From sequence record MN432485: a DNA stretch of 51,296 nucleotides, one strand, 5' to 3'. Position 1 is the stretch's first letter. Every line of letters begins with the position of its first letter. Shown one piece after another: positions 3,675 through 49,922 of this stretch. The DNA comes from Shigella phage SFP17. Below the pieces are notes generated by a model. That model saw nothing but the letters and a program-made list of their open reading frames with translations, was not told the origin of the DNA and searched no databases. The position numbers and the translations under genes are program-made.

Positions 3675-3889
3675 TATTTACCTCTGATCTCAATAGCTTT
3701 CTTAATATCACCGCATTCAAGAGCGTCACGTAGCGCCTTACTATCACGCCAACGAAGATAAGCGCCCCACATACCAAATGCAGCCATCAAAACTAAGCTG
3801 GCTATTGCGATAGTTGTTTGACCAGTTACCGCGCCAGTGATTGACGCGCCGCCAGTACCGGAAGTTGCAGCGTTTAAAAAATCTTTCAT
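3674..3889 (-). CDS. holin (71 aa, single TMD; pinholin-like)
   Basis: One strongly hydrophobic segment followed by charged C-terminus; RBS AGGAGA; position directly upstream of endolysin. Confidence 0.7.
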
Positions 3890-5693: not shown

Positions 5694-5739
5694 ATTATGC
5701 CCGACACAAGGCCGGGCGTTTTAACAAAAAGTGCTATTT
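5694..5739 (-). promoter_or_regulatory. conserved-motif promoter (motif + 22 nt dyad spacer + CATAAT)
   Basis: AAATAGCACTTTTTGTTAAAAC then GCCCGG...CCGGGC then CATAAT; upstream of 5482-5661. Confidence 0.5.
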
Positions 5740-5973
5740 TGACGCGGATTCGTAAAACTCTTGCAAGTCTTTACCGATCTGCTCATGCCATTTTTCAAGC
5801 GGTAGTTTTCTTGTTTCCTCAAAACTCATATCAAGCGCGCTTGTAAACTCCCACGGATCACAACCTAATAGCGGTTTTATGAAATCGTTTTTATCAAGCG
5901 CCTCGCAAACCATAGCGCGAAATAACAACCATTCGCCAGTTTCATTTAAATAAACGCTTCTTTCTTTCTGCAT
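5734..5973 (-). CDS. hypothetical protein (79 aa)
   Basis: ATG at 5973 with GGAG RBS; begins 4 nt after Dam stop; track ORF extended to 6060. Confidence 0.5.
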   Translation of the reverse strand: MQKERSVYLNETGEWLLFRAMVCEALDKNDFIKPLLGCDPWEFTSALDMSFEETRKLPLEKWHEQIGKDLQEFYESASK

Positions 5974-9294: not shown

Positions 9295-9768
9295 ATGAAA
9301 GAACAGCGAATCGCAGTATCAACTGGTAAGATTGACAAACGCACAATCAATGGCAATAACGGAACTCGACGGGGTAAAGATAAGAAAAAGCGCAAGCGCC
9401 CTACAGGATACTATGTTTTAAAAGATGAAGTGCGCGCCGGACTAAAAGCACGGCTTGACATTCTTATTGAGTATTACGGCAGCGTGTCAGCAATGGCAAA
9501 GCGTCTTAACGTTAGCCAGCAAACTGTAAATCAGTGGCGCGTTCGCGGTATGATTTCAGCCGCTGGCGCTCAAAAGGTGCATAACGATTACAAAAAGTAT
9601 GGCTGTCAAGGCTATCGCGCTTCATTCTGCCGTCCAGATCTGCGATTTGATTCCAATGGAAAACCGCTCACAAAGAGATGTGATAAGCGTGAAATGTTGC
9701 GAGTGGTAAGAATGTCAGATTATGAGCCTGGCGGATTCCTGTATAAACCTGAAAGCACTAATTGCTAA
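9295..9768 (+). CDS. HTH DNA-binding protein (157 aa), putative replication/transcription regulator
   Basis: RBS GGAGA; HTH-like AMAKRLNVSQQTVNQWRVRG; basic N-terminus; directly upstream of primase. Confidence 0.65.
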   Translation: MKEQRIAVSTGKIDKRTINGNNGTRRGKDKKKRKRPTGYYVLKDEVRAGLKARLDILIEYYGSVSAMAKRLNVSQQTVNQWRVRGMISAAGAQKVHNDYKKYGCQGYRASFCRPDLRFDSNGKPLTKRCDKREMLRVVRMSDYEPGGFLYKPESTNC

Positions 9769-9775
9769 AAACAAT

Positions 9776-9813
9776 GCCTGGCATGATGTTATCATCTGTC
9801 AGGCTTTTTTGTT
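9776..9813 (+). terminator. hairpin + T-run (attenuator-like) between regulator and primase
   Basis: GCCTG...CAGGC stem with long loop followed by TTTTTTGTTT. Confidence 0.35.
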
Positions 9814-9823
9814 TGAGGTGCAT

Positions 9824-10756
9824 ATGAACAACGAAAACTTTATGGTTTATCAAAAGGAAGATGTTCTCCCATATATGCAAGGATTGTGGCGTGAGGCGCT
9901 ACAAAGTATTTGCGGTCTTCCAAATGAAGTTTTTAACGGCAAGCATCAATCTTGCCCCCACTGCGGCGGAAAGGATCGCTTCAGATGGACGGATAAACTT
10001 GGCGATAAAAAAGGCGATGGCGGTGCGATCTGCAACGTGTGCGGTAATGATACCGGAATTGGTTGGATCATGAAGCTAACCGGAGAACCTTACAGCGAAG
10101 TGATCAATATTTTGGGCCGCTTTCTTGGAAAAGTTCCGCAGGACTATAGAATCAAGGCAAATAAGCGAGTATCTCGTGATTCTGGTTATTCGTTTGGGAA
10201 ACAGGCAAGCCATGAATGCTGCGAGCGCGTTATGTCAAAAACACTAAAATTTGATCGCACGCCGTTAAGCACATATGAAGGAATATACCCGCCTGAAGAT
10301 GGTCATTATGATTGCGGCGTTAAAGATGGTCGATACATTCACGCGCTCCCATGTTACCTGGTACATTCAGATGAAATTGATGATGAAATGTGCAATGTGC
10401 TTTTCATTGATGAAGAAGGTAATAAGTCTTTTCTCGCAAAGGACTACACGCGCGGGTCGATTGTGAGAACAGGAAGCACAGATAAGACGATCTATCTTTG
10501 CGTTGACTGGATTGATGCGCAACACATCCATCTTGCAACTGGTCAAGAGGTTTGGGCCTGTTTTGATGCAACTAACATTGAGATTGTGGCTTACAGGTAT
10601 AAAGGCAACAGAAGAATGCGAGTTGTCTGTAAGAGCACAGATCGTGACGCTATCATTGCCGCAGAGGAAAGAGGTCTTGAAATTATGATGCCGATTAATG
10701 ATAATTACAGGCAAGGGATAGAGAAGAAGGTTTACAAACCTGAATCTCTTCTCTAA
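9824..10756 (+). CDS. DNA primase (zinc-binding plus TOPRIM-like)
   Basis: Zinc motif [14 protein letters not shown]...CNVCG; acidic DxD-like core; RBS GAGGTG; ATG at 9824 (track start 9722 is non-ATG and crosses a hairpin). Confidence 0.75.
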
Positions 10757-17612: not shown

Positions 17613-17722
17613 GATTTGCCCTCATTGGTTGGTATGTCTGCATTGTAGCTATTTGATGCGTTTAGTCAATAGTTATTTTGTTTTTTCTGTTCTAACAACG
17701 TTCTCACCAACTTGGATAACAA

Positions 17723-17738
17723 AACTTACATGTAAGTT
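17723..17738. promoter_or_regulatory. 16-bp perfect palindrome AACTTACATGTAAGTT
   Basis: Exact inverted repeat ~110 bp upstream of exonuclease start, flanked by GGATAACAAA and TTGATAAAT. Confidence 0.4.
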
Positions 17739-17830
17739 ATTGATAAATATACGCGTTGTCTTTTTGTTCTCTTGTTCCTCCATTTGCGCCGGATATAGAT
17801 ATATAGACACACACAACCACTGACACATAC

Positions 17831-17940
17831 ATAATCACAATAAAAATCACCGGACACGCAAAATCACACAAAACATAGATAACAAGAAAAAACAAATATA
17901 AATATATATACTACTAACTTATTGATTTATATGTATGTAT
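17831..17940. repeat. iteron/AT-rich repeat block, copy A
   Basis: ATCACA/ATCACC iterons incl. TAAAAATCACC, then AACAAATATAAATATATATACTACTAACTTATTGATTT; ~85 percent identical core to 47491-47530; plus strand almost G-free. Confidence 0.6.
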
Positions 17941-18039
17941 ATATATTTATCTGTATGTATTGCGCTCTATTGTTGCTCACATTTTGAGCTAAATTTAAGC
18001 CTCCGCAGATTTGAGAACGCAGGATAACAAAAAGAACAG

Positions 18040-18083
18040 GATAGCACTTTTTGCTAAACGCCCACCGCAAGATCGTGTATAGT
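18040..18083 (+). promoter_or_regulatory. conserved-motif promoter upstream of cor
   Basis: GATAGCACTTTTTGCTAAACG + 21 nt + TATAGT. Confidence 0.5.
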
Positions 18084-18114
18084 TGCAACCAACAACAACT
18101 AAGGAGACACCAAA

Positions 18115-18342
18115 ATGAAAAAGTTAATCGCCGTTTTGATTGCCACCGTTGCACTGACTGGATGTGCAAATATGCCTAAGCGTGAATGCACGGCTATTTA
18201 TGAAAATAGCGGCATGCAGTATTCAGTTGCTATTTTTGGAGCAAAACGAGTTGGCGATCGCACTCTTGTTAAGGCTGGCTATCCGTTTAATTTTCAGTGG
18301 GTAAGTATTGATAACTTTAAAAACGCTGATTGCAGCATGTAA
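18115..18342 (+). CDS. cor: Cor-like superinfection-exclusion lipoprotein
   Basis: Signal peptide with lipobox LTGC; 75 aa; between tail and recombination modules; strong RBS AAGGAGA and own motif promoter. Confidence 0.55.
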   Translation: MKKLIAVLIATVALTGCANMPKRECTAIYENSGMQYSVAIFGAKRVGDRTLVKAGYPFNFQWVSIDNFKNADCSM

Positions 18343-28696: not shown

Positions 28697-28709
28697 TTCT
28701 TTCTCCTTG

Positions 28710-28729
28710 ATAGCACTTTTTGTTAAAAG
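28710..28729 (+). promoter_or_regulatory. conserved motif copy in reverse orientation relative to flanking tail genes
   Basis: ATAGCACTTTTTGTTAAAAG reads rightward, abutting the RBS of the minus-strand chaperone gene; poor -10 (TAGCAT) at the usual spacing. Confidence 0.35.
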
Positions 28730-28765
28730 AATTGATTATGAATCGTGTAGCATGATTGTACAGTA

Positions 28766-28790
28766 ACAAAAAAAGGGGCGCAACGCCCCT
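28766..28790 (-). terminator. strong intrinsic terminator after major tail protein gene
   Basis: AGGGGCG-caa-CGCCCCT followed on minus strand by TTTTTTTT. Confidence 0.8.
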
Positions 28791-28795
28791 TGTGA

Positions 28796-29458
28796 TTATG
28801 CTACTTGAGAAGGTAGGAAGGTGAATCGACCTTTCAGGGATACAGACAGGGAAACAGTTTCCATTTCGTTAACGGTCGTTTGTGGGATCTCGTTAAACGA
28901 AAGGACACCAGCCCAGCAACGCATCTCTTTCGCTTTCGGTACATACATGCGAAGCGCGGTCACTTCACCGGATTCATCTGCTGCACGAAGTAACGGATAG
29001 ATCGCGTTATCGTATTCGTGCGCAAAAGTGTAGGTCAGAGAAACGGCGCTCTTATAGGTAGGTAACTGCTGCTCCTGGTCGTCCGCCAAACACTGATAAG
29101 TGTAATATTGCTGTTCTCCGCCGTCCTGCGACAAATCCTGAACGCAAGGGATCTCAGTCCATGCATCAATCTTGGCAAAAGATGCAGTGCCGCCAGTCGG
29201 GAACACGTTCTGATCGGTAGTATCAACACCCTCAAGAGTCACGCTTGTTTCTTCACCGTTAGCCTTTACACGCATAACACGATCAATCAGCTTGCCCCAA
29301 GAGGACGCAGTTATGATCACATAATCACCTTTCTTGTACGCAGTGCCACCAGATGCAACGGTGAATACAGGATCTTTAGCGTTTGATACTGCCGTTGCTT
29401 GGATTTCGCTGCCACGATTGCTCTCAACGAAAATTTGCGATCCATTTGGTAAATGCAT
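28796..29458 (-). CDS. major tail protein
   Basis: 220 aa with strong RBS AAGGAG, followed by strong intrinsic terminator; position upstream of chaperones. Confidence 0.7.
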   Translation of the reverse strand: MHLPNGSQIFVESNRGSEIQATAVSNAKDPVFTVASGGTAYKKGDYVIITASSWGKLIDRVMRVKANGEETSVTLEGVDTTDQNVFPTGGTASFAKIDAWTEIPCVQDLSQDGGEQQYYTYQCLADDQEQQLPTYKSAVSLTYTFAHEYDNAIYPLLRAADESGEVTALRMYVPKAKEMRCWAGVLSFNEIPQTTVNEMETVSLSVSLKGRFTFLPSQVA

Positions 29459-29463
29459 AATTT

Positions 29464-29862
29464 TTACTCCTTTGTTTCAATTCGAACATAAAATCTTATT
29501 GGGAGAAGCCAGCCGCTTTCACTCTTGAGCGGCTTGTGAACTCTTGCACCCTCATATATATAACCATGCTCCAACATTTTACCATCGTAAAAGAATTGCG
29601 CAATCTCTTTAGCGAGCACACGCGGTCTGTCAGTTCCGTAACCTGGCGGAAACACAATGCCAACCTGAATCATTCCGATATAGGAAACACATTTGCGATC
29701 CAATGACAAGTATTCTGTGTCAACTTCAGTATAGTCAAACTTCAACCACGGCGAACCGTCACCAGGTGGAGTGAACTCTACGTTTTCATAAGCGATCATG
29801 AATCTTCTTTCGTATTCAGTAGCCAGCGCCTTACGCGCCGATAGCATTAATTCATAGTGCAT
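29464..29862 (-). CDS. putative tail terminator / minor tail protein
   Basis: Position only; RBS GAGGG. Confidence 0.45.
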   Translation of the reverse strand: MHYELMLSARKALATEYERRFMIAYENVEFTPPGDGSPWLKFDYTEVDTEYLSLDRKCVSYIGMIQVGIVFPPGYGTDRPRVLAKEIAQFFYDGKMLEHGYIYEGARVHKPLKSESGWLLPIRFYVRIETKE

Positions 29863-30295
29863 TTTTTGCCCTCGACTCTTTTATTGCCTCAGCCATATAA
29901 GATCTCAACTTAACCGCTACAATCCCAAGCACACCCGCTGGCGCTTGTTTTGAATGACCGTATTCAAGCGCGTTAGCGTAAATAAGCATATTTGAAAAAT
30001 AAATGGCCCTTACCGCTCCGCCACCTCTCAATATTGCGTATATAGCTCGCTTACCTTCCGCGATCGTTTTGTCGCCGTGCTTATCGTACTGGTTAAGCGC
30101 ATACAATGGCGGCTTATTTGCTGTTACCTGCCAGTTTCCACGGTAACGACCAGTATCTACCGGAGAACGCTTAACCAAATCTGTGTGTACTTTTTCGGCG
30201 AATAACTCCACGCAATCTTTTAGTCCACTATCAACGGCGTTTATCCACGCATCAATGTTGCCGTGAAATTCTCTTATCGTGTAGTTTTTAGCCAT
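29852..30295 (-). CDS. putative tail completion / head-tail joining protein
   Basis: Position only; RBS GAAGGA. Confidence 0.45.
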   Translation of the reverse strand: MAKNYTIREFHGNIDAWINAVDSGLKDCVELFAEKVHTDLVKRSPVDTGRYRGNWQVTANKPPLYALNQYDKHGDKTIAEGKRAIYAILRGGGAVRAIYFSNMLIYANALEYGHSKQAPAGVLGIVAVKLRSYMAEAIKESRAKNAL

Positions 30296-30659
30296 GTACA
30301 GAAATCCTTCTCAAAATAGGCCGATAAGCAACAGTGACATTGGTTTGTCTGATTGGTCTTGCTTCAACTACAACATATAATTCACCATCAACATCAATAT
30401 GATACCCGTTCTTAATTTCAACCTTGTTGTTAAAAACTCCCAACTTATCGGTTACTCGTATTGTCTCGCCGTCAATCTCGCGTACTTTTGGTGAGCGAAT
30501 TAAACCTTTGATCATTACACTGATCTCTGGCTTTTCTACTTCTTCGCCTCCGATGATTTCAACGCTTCCACGCTGCGTTATGCACTTAAACTCACCGTTG
30601 CCATCACTAAAGAAGTTAATTCCTTCGGTTGCCATTCTTGCGATCTCGTTATAGTTCAT
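30288..30659 (-). CDS. putative head-tail connector protein
   Basis: ATG at 30659 with RBS AGGAGA (track start 30665 is TTG); position. Confidence 0.45.
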
Positions 30660-46443: not shown

Positions 46444-46698
46444 AATATCTGTTGTGACTTGTTGGTGTATTACGTTTTTGCCGTTGCGGTATGTGCTATC
46501 CGTTGCGCCTTTGCAATTTGTGTAATAGATCGCGCGACCGTTATCATAGAATCTGTATGCTGTGCATCCGTCAACAGTGAACAGGCGACCGACTTTGAAA
46601 TCTGACTCCACGCCTACGACAACCGTTGATTCTGACGCCTTTTCGCATCCGGTCAGCGTAGCGATTGCAATCAAAAGTCCAATTAATGCCTTATTCAT
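46438..46698 (-). CDS. lipoprotein (86 aa)
   Basis: Signal peptide with lipobox LTGC; RBS AGGTGGGGG. Confidence 0.6.
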   Translation of the reverse strand: MNKALIGLLIAIATLTGCEKASESTVVVGVESDFKVGRLFTVDGCTAYRFYDNGRAIYYTNCKGATDSTYRNGKNVIHQQVTTDIK

Positions 46699-47267
46699 TA
46701 TTCATCCCCCACCTTTACCATCTCGTTGAGCATTTCATTCATTCGCTCAAGTGCGATTGCCGCACCCTCCAGGCGCTCACCTTCCAGATCACTGATTCGC
46801 GGCTGTGTTTTCAGTAGTTGAGCAACAAACTTTGCTCGCCACTTGATTTCAAGTTTCGCTATATCATCTCCAGTCAGAACGCGAGGCTTGCTTTTGGCTT
46901 CAGTGAGCGTAAACACAAAGCCATCACCCTCATCAGTCACCTTTCGCTTAATGCTGATCACGCCTTTTTGCTTTACTTCTGGCACACGGTTGACCACCTG
47001 GCGCATGTACGATGCTGTAATTGCGTCGCCGTTCTCCACGTTAGCGCACAAGAAAAGTGCTGGCATGAATACATTATTACGCTCACCACTACCAATTGCC
47101 GCGCCCAGGTCGCGAAGCATATCGCAGAACTCACTACGCGACATGGTGCTAATATTTTCTTCATTCATGGCGTCTACTCCTTTTGTTGCGTTTAAACTGG
47201 ATGCATTATTGCCTTGCCCTTCCCACGTGTCAATGTATTCTTGTGTTTTAATAACAATTTTTGGCAT
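46698..47267 (-). CDS. hypothetical early protein (189 aa)
   Basis: First minus-strand gene after the 47.3-47.9 kb non-coding region; clean ORF. Confidence 0.6.
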   Translation of the reverse strand: MPKIVIKTQEYIDTWEGQGNNASSLNATKGVDAMNEENISTMSRSEFCDMLRDLGAAIGSGERNNVFMPALFLCANVENGDAITASYMRQVVNRVPEVKQKGVISIKRKVTDEGDGFVFTLTEAKSKPRVLTGDDIAKLEIKWRAKFVAQLLKTQPRISDLEGERLEGAAIALERMNEMLNEMVKVGDE

Positions 47268-47375
47268 GTGGCGCGTTTAAAGATAACAAAATGCTTCAGT
47301 TAAGTCATTGGTTTTTCTGTTAAAAGTGACCTTGTTGACTTGGTTGACGGAGGATTGCCCCATACCCATATATAT

Positions 47376-47545
47376 ACATATAAAAATCACCACACATCAC
47401 CATTGATTAAAAAATATACAATCACACATACATATCACCACAAACAATACCACTCCACCATATACCCATAGAACAAGCTCAACAGTAAATAACAAATATA
47501 AATACATATATAACTAACTTATTGATTTTATGGGTATATATATAA
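47376..47545. repeat. iteron/AT-rich repeat block, copy B
   Basis: TAAAAATCACC plus 4-5 ATCAC(C/A) iterons, then AACAAATATAAATACATATATAACTAACTTATTGATTTT; direct orientation relative to copy A; plus strand almost G-free over ~125 bp. Confidence 0.6.
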
Positions 47546-47768
47546 ATTTTACTTTGTTCTTTTTGTTGATGAACGCCGATTCTGTTATCTAAAAGTGCGG
47601 AGGCTTATTTGAGATAACATGGGGAACAGAAATAACAGATGCGCGCGCCAGGATTGCTGGAAAGGATGCAAGAGGGCCGTGTTTCTCTATCCCCTCCACA
47701 CAAAAAGTTAATCACTTGATTAAAATTGACCAAACTCAAAGTCTCACAATCCAGGTGATCGCGAATGA

Positions 47769-47813
47769 GTTATTCCTGTTATTCCTGATTAATGGAATAG
47801 ATGGAATAATAAC
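47769..47813. promoter_or_regulatory. operator-like repeat array (GTTATTCCT x2 followed by inverted GGAATAgatGGAATAATAAC)
   Basis: Four half-sites with dyad symmetry centred about 47790, 10-50 bp upstream of motif promoter 47822. Confidence 0.4.
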
Positions 47814-47821
47814 CAGTCAGC

Positions 47822-47867
47822 AAATAGCACTTTTTGTTAAAACGTGCCTGACTGGATTCGGCATAAT
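47822..47867 (+). promoter_or_regulatory. conserved-motif promoter
   Basis: AAATAGCACTTTTTGTTAAAAC + 22 nt + CATAAT; upstream of 47906-48178. Confidence 0.5.
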
Positions 47868-47905
47868 GCACACATCGAAACGAGATACCATTCAGGAGAT
47901 AGCAA

Positions 47906-48178
47906 ATGAACATCAGCAAAACCACTTTCAACTTTGCAAAGCGTCATGGTCTGGACCTGACTGTTGAGAATTTCGGCGATGTTCTGCAACTCTGCATTTG
48001 GGAAGCGGATAACGATTGCGAGTGGCTTTGCTCTTATCGTATCAACTACGATTGCTTAACCTGGCATGGCAACGTTTACCTGCCGCAAGAAGTGAAAGAG
48101 GAATTGCCAGCGACCATCAATAATGAAGTGTTTTTGCGCAAAGTCATGAAGTTTATTGCTGAGGAGATCAAGAAATGA
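47906..48178 (+). CDS. hypothetical protein (90 aa)
   Basis: RBS AGGAGA; motif promoter 47822-47867 upstream. Confidence 0.6.
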   Translation: MNISKTTFNFAKRHGLDLTVENFGDVLQLCIWEADNDCEWLCSYRINYDCLTWHGNVYLPQEVKEELPATINNEVFLRKVMKFIAEEIKK

Positions 48179-48433: not shown

Positions 48434-48700
48434 ATGGCGCGAATCAATGCACCTATTCCAGTTAAGCGCAAAGCACGTTTGCTCAATAACGGATGTTACG
48501 CCCTGCGGCCTGCATTTAAGGATCGCACCTTTCCGGTTATCGTTAACGTATCTCACGTAAGCCGTAGCGGAAACCTGGTATTCGTTGAAGGCTCTGACCT
48601 GGCGGCGCTTGGATTCTATGGCGGCATATTCAATGAGCCGCTTGCATTTTGGGCCAAGCATCCATCAACCGGATTGCCAGAAATTGAACTTATCGACTAA
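48434..48700 (+). CDS. hypothetical protein (88 aa)
   Basis: RBS AAGGAGAA. Confidence 0.6.
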   Translation: MARINAPIPVKRKARLLNNGCYALRPAFKDRTFPVIVNVSHVSRSGNLVFVEGSDLAALGFYGGIFNEPLAFWAKHPSTGLPEIELID

Positions 48701-48744
48701 AAAGCACTTTTTGTTAAAACTCAATCCTGGCAATCCGATATATT
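48699..48744 (+). promoter_or_regulatory. conserved-motif promoter
   Basis: AAAAGCACTTTTTGTTAAAAC + 22 nt + TATATT; upstream of 48778-48930. Confidence 0.5.
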
Positions 48745-48777
48745 ACACACATCGACAACGAATGCGAGGATTTGAAA

Positions 48778-48930
48778 ATGGTTACTCTGATTACCTGGGA
48801 ACACGAAAACAGCCAGCCGGAAGTGCGCGAATTTGAAACTGTAGCGGCCTGCTACAACCTTGCGAAAAATGGCGGCTTCTATAAGGCGCAAATTGTTAAC
48901 GAATTTGGAGTTGTTGACTATGAGTTCTAA
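48778..48930 (+). CDS. hypothetical small protein (50 aa, below ORF-track cutoff)
   Basis: RBS GAGGA; downstream of motif promoter 48699-48744; stop overlaps next start. Confidence 0.45.
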   Translation: MVTLITWEHENSQPEVREFETVAACYNLAKNGGFYKAQIVNEFGVVDYEF

Positions 48931-49467: not shown

Positions 49468-49748
49468 TGGCATACAAAAACAGCGATTTTAAAAACTCAG
49501 CCGAAACAATCAAGACGCAACTCATTAAACAACGCGCTTATAGATTCTGGCTTGATTATCATGACCTAAGAAAAGAGATGGATAATCTTATCAAGACTGG
49601 TAACGCGTTCTGTTCTAACAGGACGGTTTGGCGCAATATGAATGCGCAGTACGGTTATGGAAAAATTCGTGTATTTGGTGAGGCTGTTGAAGCGTATGTA
49701 TTTAGCGCAACAAAAGCTGTGAGTTTTAATGTTGTTGGTATTAATTAG
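49467..49748 (+). CDS. hypothetical protein (93 aa)
   Basis: RBS GGAGG; start overlaps upstream stop. Confidence 0.55.
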   Translation: MAYKNSDFKNSAETIKTQLIKQRAYRFWLDYHDLRKEMDNLIKTGNAFCSNRTVWRNMNAQYGYGKIRVFGEAVEAYVFSATKAVSFNVVGIN

Positions 49749-49848
49749 ATGAAGCTAATAATATTCCATAATGCCTGGATGGTAGCTGTTGCAAATAATC
49801 ATTATGGCGGAGACGGCAAGCGAGCAAAGCGCCATAGCTATTTCAACT

Positions 49849-49892
49849 GATAGCACGAATTGCTAAACAATATTTCTCAAACCTGGTATAGT
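49849..49892 (+). promoter_or_regulatory. conserved-motif promoter (GAATTG variant)
   Basis: GATAGCACGAATTGCTAAAC + 21 nt + TATAGT; upstream of 49923-50150. Confidence 0.5.
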
Positions 49893-49922
49893 TATCACAC
49901 CAAATATAATGAGGATTGCATA

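Follow-up and report, generated by a model that had tools for sequence, protein, structure and literature searches.

Among the seven classical T phages is bacteriophage T1, whose relatives often contaminate laboratories and fermenters and are also candidates for phage therapy. We analyzed the genome of one such relative, Shigella phage SFP17 (sequence record MN432485; the window is the whole stretch of 51,296 nucleotides), with emphasis on a gene-free region at 47268–47905, referred to here as region B, that resembles a second intergenic region, region A (17615–18115), and shares with it a module that may act as a replication origin. According to the genome papers on the T1-like phages TLS and SU57, no replication origin has been located in T1-like phages (PMC11447400, PMC7718038), and our literature search did not locate a paper naming one in a T1-like phage.

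The closest documented parallel is SPP1, a pac-type siphophage, in which oriL and oriR each combine direct repeats with an AT-rich unwinding element, and gp38 binds both of them; oriR is thought to stall forks and thereby to trigger a switch to concatemers that depends on an exonuclease, an annealase, and a protein that binds single-stranded DNA (SSB) (PMC6316719). SFP17 likewise has two paralogous modules of repeats and an AT-rich core, one of them upstream of recE-erf-ssb. There is, however, no sequence or protein homology between the SPP1 elements and those of SFP17, and no gp38-like initiator is known in T1-like phages. In addition, oriL is situated inside the initiator gene, whereas both SFP17 copies are intergenic, with repeats that are 7-mers.

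A broader class of comparison is formed by iteron-type theta origins, such as lambda ori and those of pSC101 and R6K, in which an AT-rich unwinding element is flanked by initiator sites, often accompanied by an integration host factor (IHF) site, and activated by nearby transcription. The SFP17 modules resemble them in having an AT-rich core, flanking 7-mers that are candidate initiator sites, matches to the IHF consensus, and nearby promoters. Classical iterons differ in that they measure 17–22 bp and follow each other closely in tandem, the lambda origin is located within gene O, and plasmid origins commonly carry DnaA boxes, which the SFP17 modules lack. Satellite phage P4 offers another precedent, with two separated cis elements, ori and crr, that contain the same short repeat, to which the primase-helicase alpha protein binds. 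A related primase of the zinc-ribbon kind is encoded by T1-like phages, and the TLS motif TGTTCAC(G/A) presumably resembles the P4 repeat, a likeness we take as a lead only. Finally, the packaging site (pac) of phage P1 is typified by short repeats and an IHF site, and the pac sites of TLS and T1 fall in the same genomic gap as SFP17 region B. Unlike the shared module of SFP17, which is duplicated, the pac of these headful phages (P1, SPP1, TLS/T1) is single; moreover, the gap is far from the small terminase gene, terS, and pac of SFP17 is placed by synteny.

Alignment of the two SFP17 regions indicates that region B is paralogous to region A, with a shared module of ~300 bp. We tentatively read this module as a replication origin, the foremost of the interpretations weighed here, although one that we hold as possible rather than probable. 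Our best reading of region B as a whole is that of a composite central control region comprising a leftward early promoter (P_L), the origin-like module, a B-specific segment predicted to bear pac, and a rightward promoter of a 21-nt-repeat type. The parts of the shared module in region B, and the paralogous copy, are the following:

47356–47485, plus strand: A/C-rich, nearly G-free tract with four ATCAC(C/A) repeats, from a genome-wide window ranking.
47486–47567: AT-rich core, candidate DNA-unwinding element, from duplex stability, A/B identity, and conservation.
47582–47638, plus strand: right-hand array of ATAACA-type sites, with an inverted site at 47583–47589 followed by GATAACA (47613), GGAACAG (47623), and AATAACA (47632).
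17615–18115: region A, from the alignment with region B, between recE (minus strand, start 17614) and cor (plus strand, 18116–18342); it contains a recE promoter, P_recE (17642–17669), GATAACA at 17715, 17878, and 18023, an ATCAC cluster (17834–17868), an AT core (17860–17959), and a repeat-type promoter (18041).

Identity between the copies reaches 71% over 95 nt (17834–17928 against 47434–47528), with a best block of 38 matches in 44 positions, which bears out the claim of the first-pass annotation that an AT-rich core is common to the two regions. That annotation had also described a stretch of ~125 bp nearly free of G and four or five ATCAC(C/A) repeats, and both observations hold. Positions 47357–47485 contain 5 G in 129 nt, and the plus strand of 47356–47484, with 4 G, is the most G-poor 129-nt segment genome-wide (mean 26.4); the runner-up, with 8 G, starts at 17824 in region A. 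Four repeats were counted (47386, 47396, 47421, and 47434), and no other part of the genome is as dense in them as this stretch of 60 nt with its four copies, followed by region A with three and by at most two elsewhere. None of 200 block shuffles reached four copies. The repeats belong to a strand-asymmetric, A/C-rich tract, an asymmetry that both loci also show in TLS and T1, whereas those of Rtp do not. When IMG/VR was scanned with a core pattern of 15 nt, all matches were AT-rich, unrelated, and attributable to chance; a plasmid collection searched with 47340–47720 gave no similarity.

Nearest-neighbour scans of duplex stability over whole genomes, in 60- and 100-nt segments, ranked the region B core as the second least stable segment of the SFP17 genome (z of +4.7 to +5.0), the least stable being the region A core. 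The same two cores are the two least stable segments genome-wide in all five genomes compared (SFP17, TLS, T1, Rtp, and Samwise, representing five genera and three subfamilies), at z of +4.3 to +5.9 versus +3.0 to +3.75 for the third segment. AT-rich DNA of the kind expected of an unwinding element is therefore found in SFP17 and likewise in four other genera, and the pattern persists where BLAST detects no similarity to region B, as in T1. Conservation of the core among 11 relatives is 0.985–0.994. Inside it, the IHF consensus AATCAATAAGTTA occurs on the minus strand at 47515–47527, and an identical match lies in the region A core; regions A and B together hold 4 of the 13 matches in the genome versus 0.31 expected (~13-fold).

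Short repeats besides ATCAC had also been noticed in the first-pass annotation, and GATAACA proved to be enriched in both regions. This 7-mer occurs 16 times in the genome versus 7.4 expected, and 6 of the 16 copies (three in each region) fall in A and B, together 2.4% of its length (binomial p ~1e-6). Three sites of the right-hand array of region B are in tandem (47613–47638) with a period of 9–10 nt, and a comparable tandem run, read by eye from the sequence, is found at ~18013–18039 in region A. Further sites in region B are a left distal GATAACA at 47282–47288 and an AATAACA at 47488–47494 within the AT core. Across 47575–47644, columns of ATAACA sites had 0.36 differing sequences per column versus 1.19 for the spacers (p = 0.01), and in the relative egaa, whose region B differs in its left half, the architecture is the same (G-free A/C tract, AT core), with four tandem ATAACA sites at the equivalent place. 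As putative initiator sites, these 7-mers are enriched, flank the core, are partly tandem, and co-vary between A and B; they are short, and the protein that would bind them is hypothetical. The (G/A)ATAACA(G/A) sites are the most iteron-like elements of the module, closer to what is expected of iterons than the ATCAC repeats. The iterons originally proposed are supported as short motifs repeated around an AT-rich core, and several sequence hallmarks of an origin are present at the two loci throughout the five genera.

The comparison with other genera extends to these sites. A lineage-specific short motif that is common to A and B and enriched there was found in four of the five genomes:

SFP17: GATAACA, 3 + 3 (A + B) of 16 genomic copies.
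TLS: GTGAACA, 2 + 2 of 8 copies (also TGGAACA).
T1: TGTAACA, 4 + 2 of 6 copies, that is, all copies in the genome (p 2.5e-10).
Rtp: CCGCGGA, 2 + 4 of 6 copies, again all copies in the genome (p 6e-10).

For Samwise nothing but A-rich words came out of the k-mer scan; GAAACA-type tandem repeats were read by eye in both copies. The offset of the motif sites from the AT core is similar in the two regions, and several of them are in tandem with a period of 8–11 nt (partly by eye). Since the motifs differ between lineages on the same host yet match between the two loci of each genome, they point to a phage-encoded protein that binds lineage-specific sites in both regions.

These features could be brought together as follows. 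A phage-encoded, sequence-specific protein would bind the ATAACA arrays flanking the AT core, IHF would bend the DNA of the shared module, and the core would melt, aided by transcription from the adjacent early promoters. The phage DUF3987 helicase (674–2257) and the zinc-ribbon primase (9722–10756) would then be loaded. Region A would serve as another origin, or else as a site that acts late or arrests forks, in the manner of oriL/oriR of SPP1. P_L is predicted to serve the long leftward early operon, and the rightward early operon ends with the gene of the DUF3987 helicase. The sequences themselves establish the anatomy, its conservation, the duplication, the recurrence across the family, and the promoters as matches to consensus; we infer protein binding, melting, and origin activity at the shared module, as well as the position of pac in SFP17.

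Immediately after the helicase gene, SFP17 encodes a 130-aa protein (2260–2652) with no Pfam match. Its structural model, a confident one (pLDDT 86), has a helix-helix-helix plus beta-hairpin layout that is winged-helix-like, and a fold search with it gave non-significant matches, mostly to winged-helix proteins (E > 0.3). It is a candidate DNA-binding partner of the DUF3987 helicase. Searches for the origin-binding domain of P4 alpha found no match in the 130-aa protein (by sequence and by fold) or in a Cro-like protein (by sequence), and the DUF3987 helicase had no sequence match in the PDB. The PDB sequence searches for a domain of this type gave nothing useful except Cro-like matches for the protein encoded at 9295–9768.

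Several observations weigh against an origin. The repeats are short 7-mers rather than classical iterons of 17–22 bp, and no initiator protein was identified, the search having been for a P4-alpha-like origin-binding domain in the phage proteins. There are no DnaA boxes in the module of region A or B, and their total in the genome is below shuffle expectation; a single one-mismatch match in region B, at 47864, is within a promoter leader. GATC occurs once per region (at 47757 in region B) versus 275 times in the genome. None of the B cores of TLS, T1, and Rtp retains the IHF consensus exactly. Region B does not adjoin the primase or SF2-helicase genes, two origin copies would be unusual, and gene orientation around A misfits bidirectional replication from it. 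Finally, AT-rich DNA and binding sites between promoters also suit transcription control.

The last point is the basis of the strongest rival, in which the shared module is a transcription-control region where a phage regulator, such as the Cro/YdaS-like product of 9295–9768, would use the ATAACA sites as operators or in the way of enhancers. Such a regulator would time the early and recE promoters, while the AT-rich DNA and IHF would serve in bending or silencing. We consider this unlikely, but clearly less so than the remaining alternatives. The promoters that bear on it are the following:

47205–47233, minus strand: P_L, sigma-70 promoter of the leftward early operon (TTGACA, 17-nt spacer, AATAAT).
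47280–47308, minus strand: weak second leftward promoter-like site (ATGACT, 17-nt spacer, TATCTT).
47824–47867, plus strand: promoter of the rightward early operon, 21-nt-repeat type (ATAGCACTTTTTGTTAAAA, 19 nt, CATAAT).

P_L matched 11 of 12 consensus positions in a scan, with both hexamers conserved in relatives, and has the −35 and −10 hexamers of a sigma-70 consensus match within the 16–18 nt spacing. The site at 47280–47308 falls opposite the recE promoter in the alignment with region A, and it overlaps the GATAACA at 47282–47288; its assignment as a promoter is tentative because its score is below the threshold of the scan. Both copies of the shared module are located upstream of sigma-70 promoters (P_L at 47205–47233, P_recE at 17642–17669), one ATAACA-type site overlaps the promoter-like −10 at 47280–47285, and the array of region A abuts the cor promoter at 18041. 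The phage does encode a Cro-like helix-turn-helix protein, and lineage-specific sites suit a regulator as well as an initiator. On the other hand, the AT cores are 100–300 nt from the promoters, too distant for UP elements, and an operator region need not be the two most meltable segments in five genomes. The conserved strand asymmetry would be left unexplained. In TLS, region A retains the right-hand sites with neither a rightward gene nor a rightward promoter there, which argues against a pure operator role.

At its right-hand edge, region B ends in a promoter of another type. The published TLS consensus aaATAGCACnnnTTGnTAAAA of a 21-nt intergenic repeat of T1-like phages, the function of which is an open question in PMC11447400, is matched at 47824–47842 with no mismatches, oriented with transcription and starting 82 nt upstream of the ATG at 47906, so that this site qualifies as a promoter element of the repeat type. 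A conserved leader and ribosome-binding site extend from the promoter to that ATG. This known repeat explains only the right-hand 45 nt of region B. SFP17 has 18 copies of repeat-type promoters with uniform spacing to the −10 hexamer. Other sites include those at 5737, 6757, and 46441 on the minus strand and at 48701 and 49198 on the plus strand, and the general layout is the repeat, 18–19 nt that often contain a GC-rich inverted repeat, (C/T)ATAAT, and often a leader CATCGA(A/C)AACGA. The TTGnTA within the repeat is 22 nt from the −10 hexamer and therefore cannot serve as a normal −35, and by analogy the arrangement suggests a phage factor acting like MotA of T4. Our literature search found no paper in which transcription starts had been mapped for Drexlerviridae.

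The rightward operon opens with a gene for a 90-aa protein, of which a T4-like Krischvirus encodes a homologue with 61% identity (stretches compared: 47862–48178 in SFP17 and 501–817 in MK327941.1). Between the two phages, identity is 95% over the 39 nt that reach from the −10 to the end of the ribosome-binding site. Where the T1-like copy has the 21-nt repeat, the Krischvirus copy has a canonical TTGACA-17-CATAAT, and the comparison thus gives independent support for the −10 assignment. The gene and its leader look like the product of horizontal exchange between T1-like and T4-like phages. T1 (at 100–121) and Rtp each have two leftward promoters of the 21-nt-repeat type in their region B, whereas SFP17 has just one, and the outer of these leftward promoters in T1 and Rtp would transcribe across the neighbourhood of pac.

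Between the shared module and the rightward promoter is the part of region B that has no counterpart in region A:

47645–47822: B-specific segment, absent from region A (gap in the A/B alignment; ~180 nt).
47708–47723: palindrome TTAATCA-NN-TGATTAA, with arms invariant and centre variable among relatives; operator-like.
47770–47812: double palindrome TTATTCC-TG-TTATTCC-TGATTAA-TGGAATA-GA-TGGAATAA, immediately upstream of the promoter for the rightward operon; operator-like.

The double palindrome has a DNA fold z of −3.1, is nearly invariant in relatives, and is kept in T1 (48767–48802); the equivalent position of TLS has a different double palindrome, two copies of TAGACCGATTGGTCTA. A GC-rich segment had been reported at 47636–47700, and it is present although only mildly GC-rich (58% versus ~44% for the genome). 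In the TLS paper, pac was mapped by restriction fragments of ~5.9 kb (HindIII) and ~2.7 kb (EcoRV). HindIII cuts the TLS sequence at 5876 and EcoRV at 2733, and these sites together place the TLS pac near coordinate 1, in the equivalent of the B-specific segment, with the palindromes on one side and the GC-rich stretch on the other. The T1 record has a 2.8-kb terminal repeat annotated as beginning in the gap equivalent to region B, and the SU57 authors likewise place the genome end in that gap. By synteny, pac of SFP17, where headful packaging starts, likely lies at ~47640–47770. The record ends of G29-2 (47688) and haarsle (47697) were considered as further evidence for pac and rejected, because such ends follow convention and the G29-2 sequence had been ordered to agree with relatives already published. 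All the features listed for region B in the first-pass annotation are present, while the sigma-70 promoter P_L, the 21-nt-repeat promoter, the two palindromes, and the synteny with pac had been overlooked.

That the shared module itself forms part of the packaging signal, with the small terminase binding the repeats and IHF bending the DNA as in pac of P1 or cos of lambda, is improbable in our judgment. Under this proposal pac is region B, and region A would be a further pac that is secondary or vestigial. The mapping of the TLS pac to the equivalent gap, ~5.9 kb from a HindIII site, and the placing of the T1 terminal repeat and of the SU57 end in the same gap speak for this proposal, and the AT core, ~200 nt away, is within the accuracy of the gels. 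Conversely, just one pac fragment was reported for TLS, whereas the module is present twice; the mapped end of TLS is in the B-specific segment and not in the shared core; and terS is ~8.8 kb distant. In TLS (49859–49902 plus 1–60) and Samwise (~3790–3840), a cluster of AATCAAATC or TGATT-type repeats is found between the shared module and the repeat-type promoter; that of TLS is the densest in its genome and coincides with the mapped pac. These clusters, of a kind that SFP17 lacks, may be a terminase recognition element. As a signature of pac, TGATT/AATCA clusters ranked top at the TLS and T1 pac, but they are not enriched in region B of SFP17, which also counts against the proposal.

SFP17 is a T1-like phage (Drexlerviridae, Tempevirinae, Hanrivervirus), and its entire genome is collinear with the reverse complement of TLS. 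Region B is the large gap that separates two divergent early operons, and region A directly adjoins the recE-erf-ssb operon on its upstream side, with the superinfection-exclusion gene cor downstream. In TLS the equivalents are 49708–49902 plus 1–588 (region B) and 28707–29165 (region A); in T1 they are 48675–48836 plus 1–538 and 29851–30377. Region A is kept at its full length in other genera at ~74%, and region B is 92–97% identical to its counterparts in Hanrivervirus phages such as JLBYU41, Henu8, and JakobBernoulli. Across 11 Hanriverviruses, conservation of 47370–47820 is 0.93–0.99 per 30-nt bin versus ~0.82–0.93 in the adjacent flanks. The cumulative GC-skew minimum of the genome is at 47–48 kb, a point in favor of an origin there, though one confounded with gene orientation. 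About 20 records titled 'UNVERIFIED: Campylobacter phage' (A127, A134, A16a, and others), classified under Drexlerviridae, are 88–95% identical to the region; these are probably coliphage contaminants or mislabelled.

The left limit of region B, 47268, is merely the end of the longest open reading frame (ORF; 46698–47267), the version used in the annotation of JLBYU41. That frame begins 99 nt farther upstream than the likely start, 47169, and engulfs a near-consensus promoter. The gene, the first of the leftward operon, matches DUF7174; its start-codon annotation varies among relatives, and most of them annotate it at the likely ATG at 47169, behind an AAGGAG ribosome-binding site. Given this ATG, its AAGGAG, and the promoter at 47205–47233 inside the longer ORF, the gap more likely spans 47170–47905.

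Region B is non-coding. Close relatives have either no ORF annotated within it or one of 216, 327, or 438 nt, and SFP17 has only a 30-aa ORF whose ATG (47619) is mutated in most relatives; this inconsistency of the calls and the loss of the ATG are the grounds for the assignment. Comparison of close relatives showed no conserved intact ORF with a start codon, none being present in SFP17 and four relatives, and the region is accordingly gene-free, as had been stated originally, even when ORFs with a coding signature are looked for by comparative genomics. A small RNA or a small protein encoded by region B is less probable still than a packaging role for the module. The long gap is highly conserved, some relatives have a hypothetical ORF annotated, and a G-free strand could yield a distinctive transcript. 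Against these points stand the inconsistent ORF lengths and the mutated ATG, the lack of a promoter-terminator pair in a consensus scan, and the results for RNA structure: Rfam gave no match at gathering thresholds for the whole genome and none at E up to 1 for 47100–48000, and RNA folds of the GC-rich part (47590–47712) on the two strands were not better than shuffles (z of −1.2 and −1.9).

The fold results also bear on an 8-mer that had been interpreted as a local inversion, a rearranged hairpin arm, or a conserved structured element. The 8-mer GCGGAGGC is present at 47597–47604, inside the right-hand array, as is its reverse complement GCCTCCGC in region A, the latter at 17999–18006 and not, as originally given, at 18000–18007. 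By a rough estimate, the chance of such an occurrence somewhere in a 500-nt alignment is ~0.08, and the inverted 8-mer is lost in the more distant region-A relatives BEK12B and tunus. Because the RNA folds are not significant, the reading as a structured RNA or hairpin arm at the 8-mer was dropped; the idea of an inversion is not supported either. That both copies of the module are a functionless remnant of an old duplication is scarcely credible: AT-rich DNA accumulates in gaps, as intergenic DNA of phages commonly shows, and the copies are only 71% identical, but both have been retained in five genera and three subfamilies, their lineage-specific motif is common to A and B in four genomes and points to evolution in concert, and region B is conserved at least as well as the neighbouring genes.

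A replication origin in the shared module, which we continue to favor tentatively, would give T1-like phages two precise and conserved candidate origin sites per genome, with a lineage-specific site motif that is usable to fish for the binding protein. More speculatively, and on balance we think it unlikely, the two paralogous origin modules might be served by one fast-evolving phage protein, one module standing beside pac in the terminal redundancy and the other upstream of recE-erf-ssb, so that theta replication early in infection, the change to concatemers driven by recombination, and the onset of headful packaging would be coupled through the pair. In SFP17, the candidate origin, early promoters, and probable pac are found within ~740 bp. 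If confirmed, the origin would belong to an already known class, closest to oriL/oriR of SPP1; it would settle where replication of T1-like phages starts and would provide a minimal cis element for engineering them.

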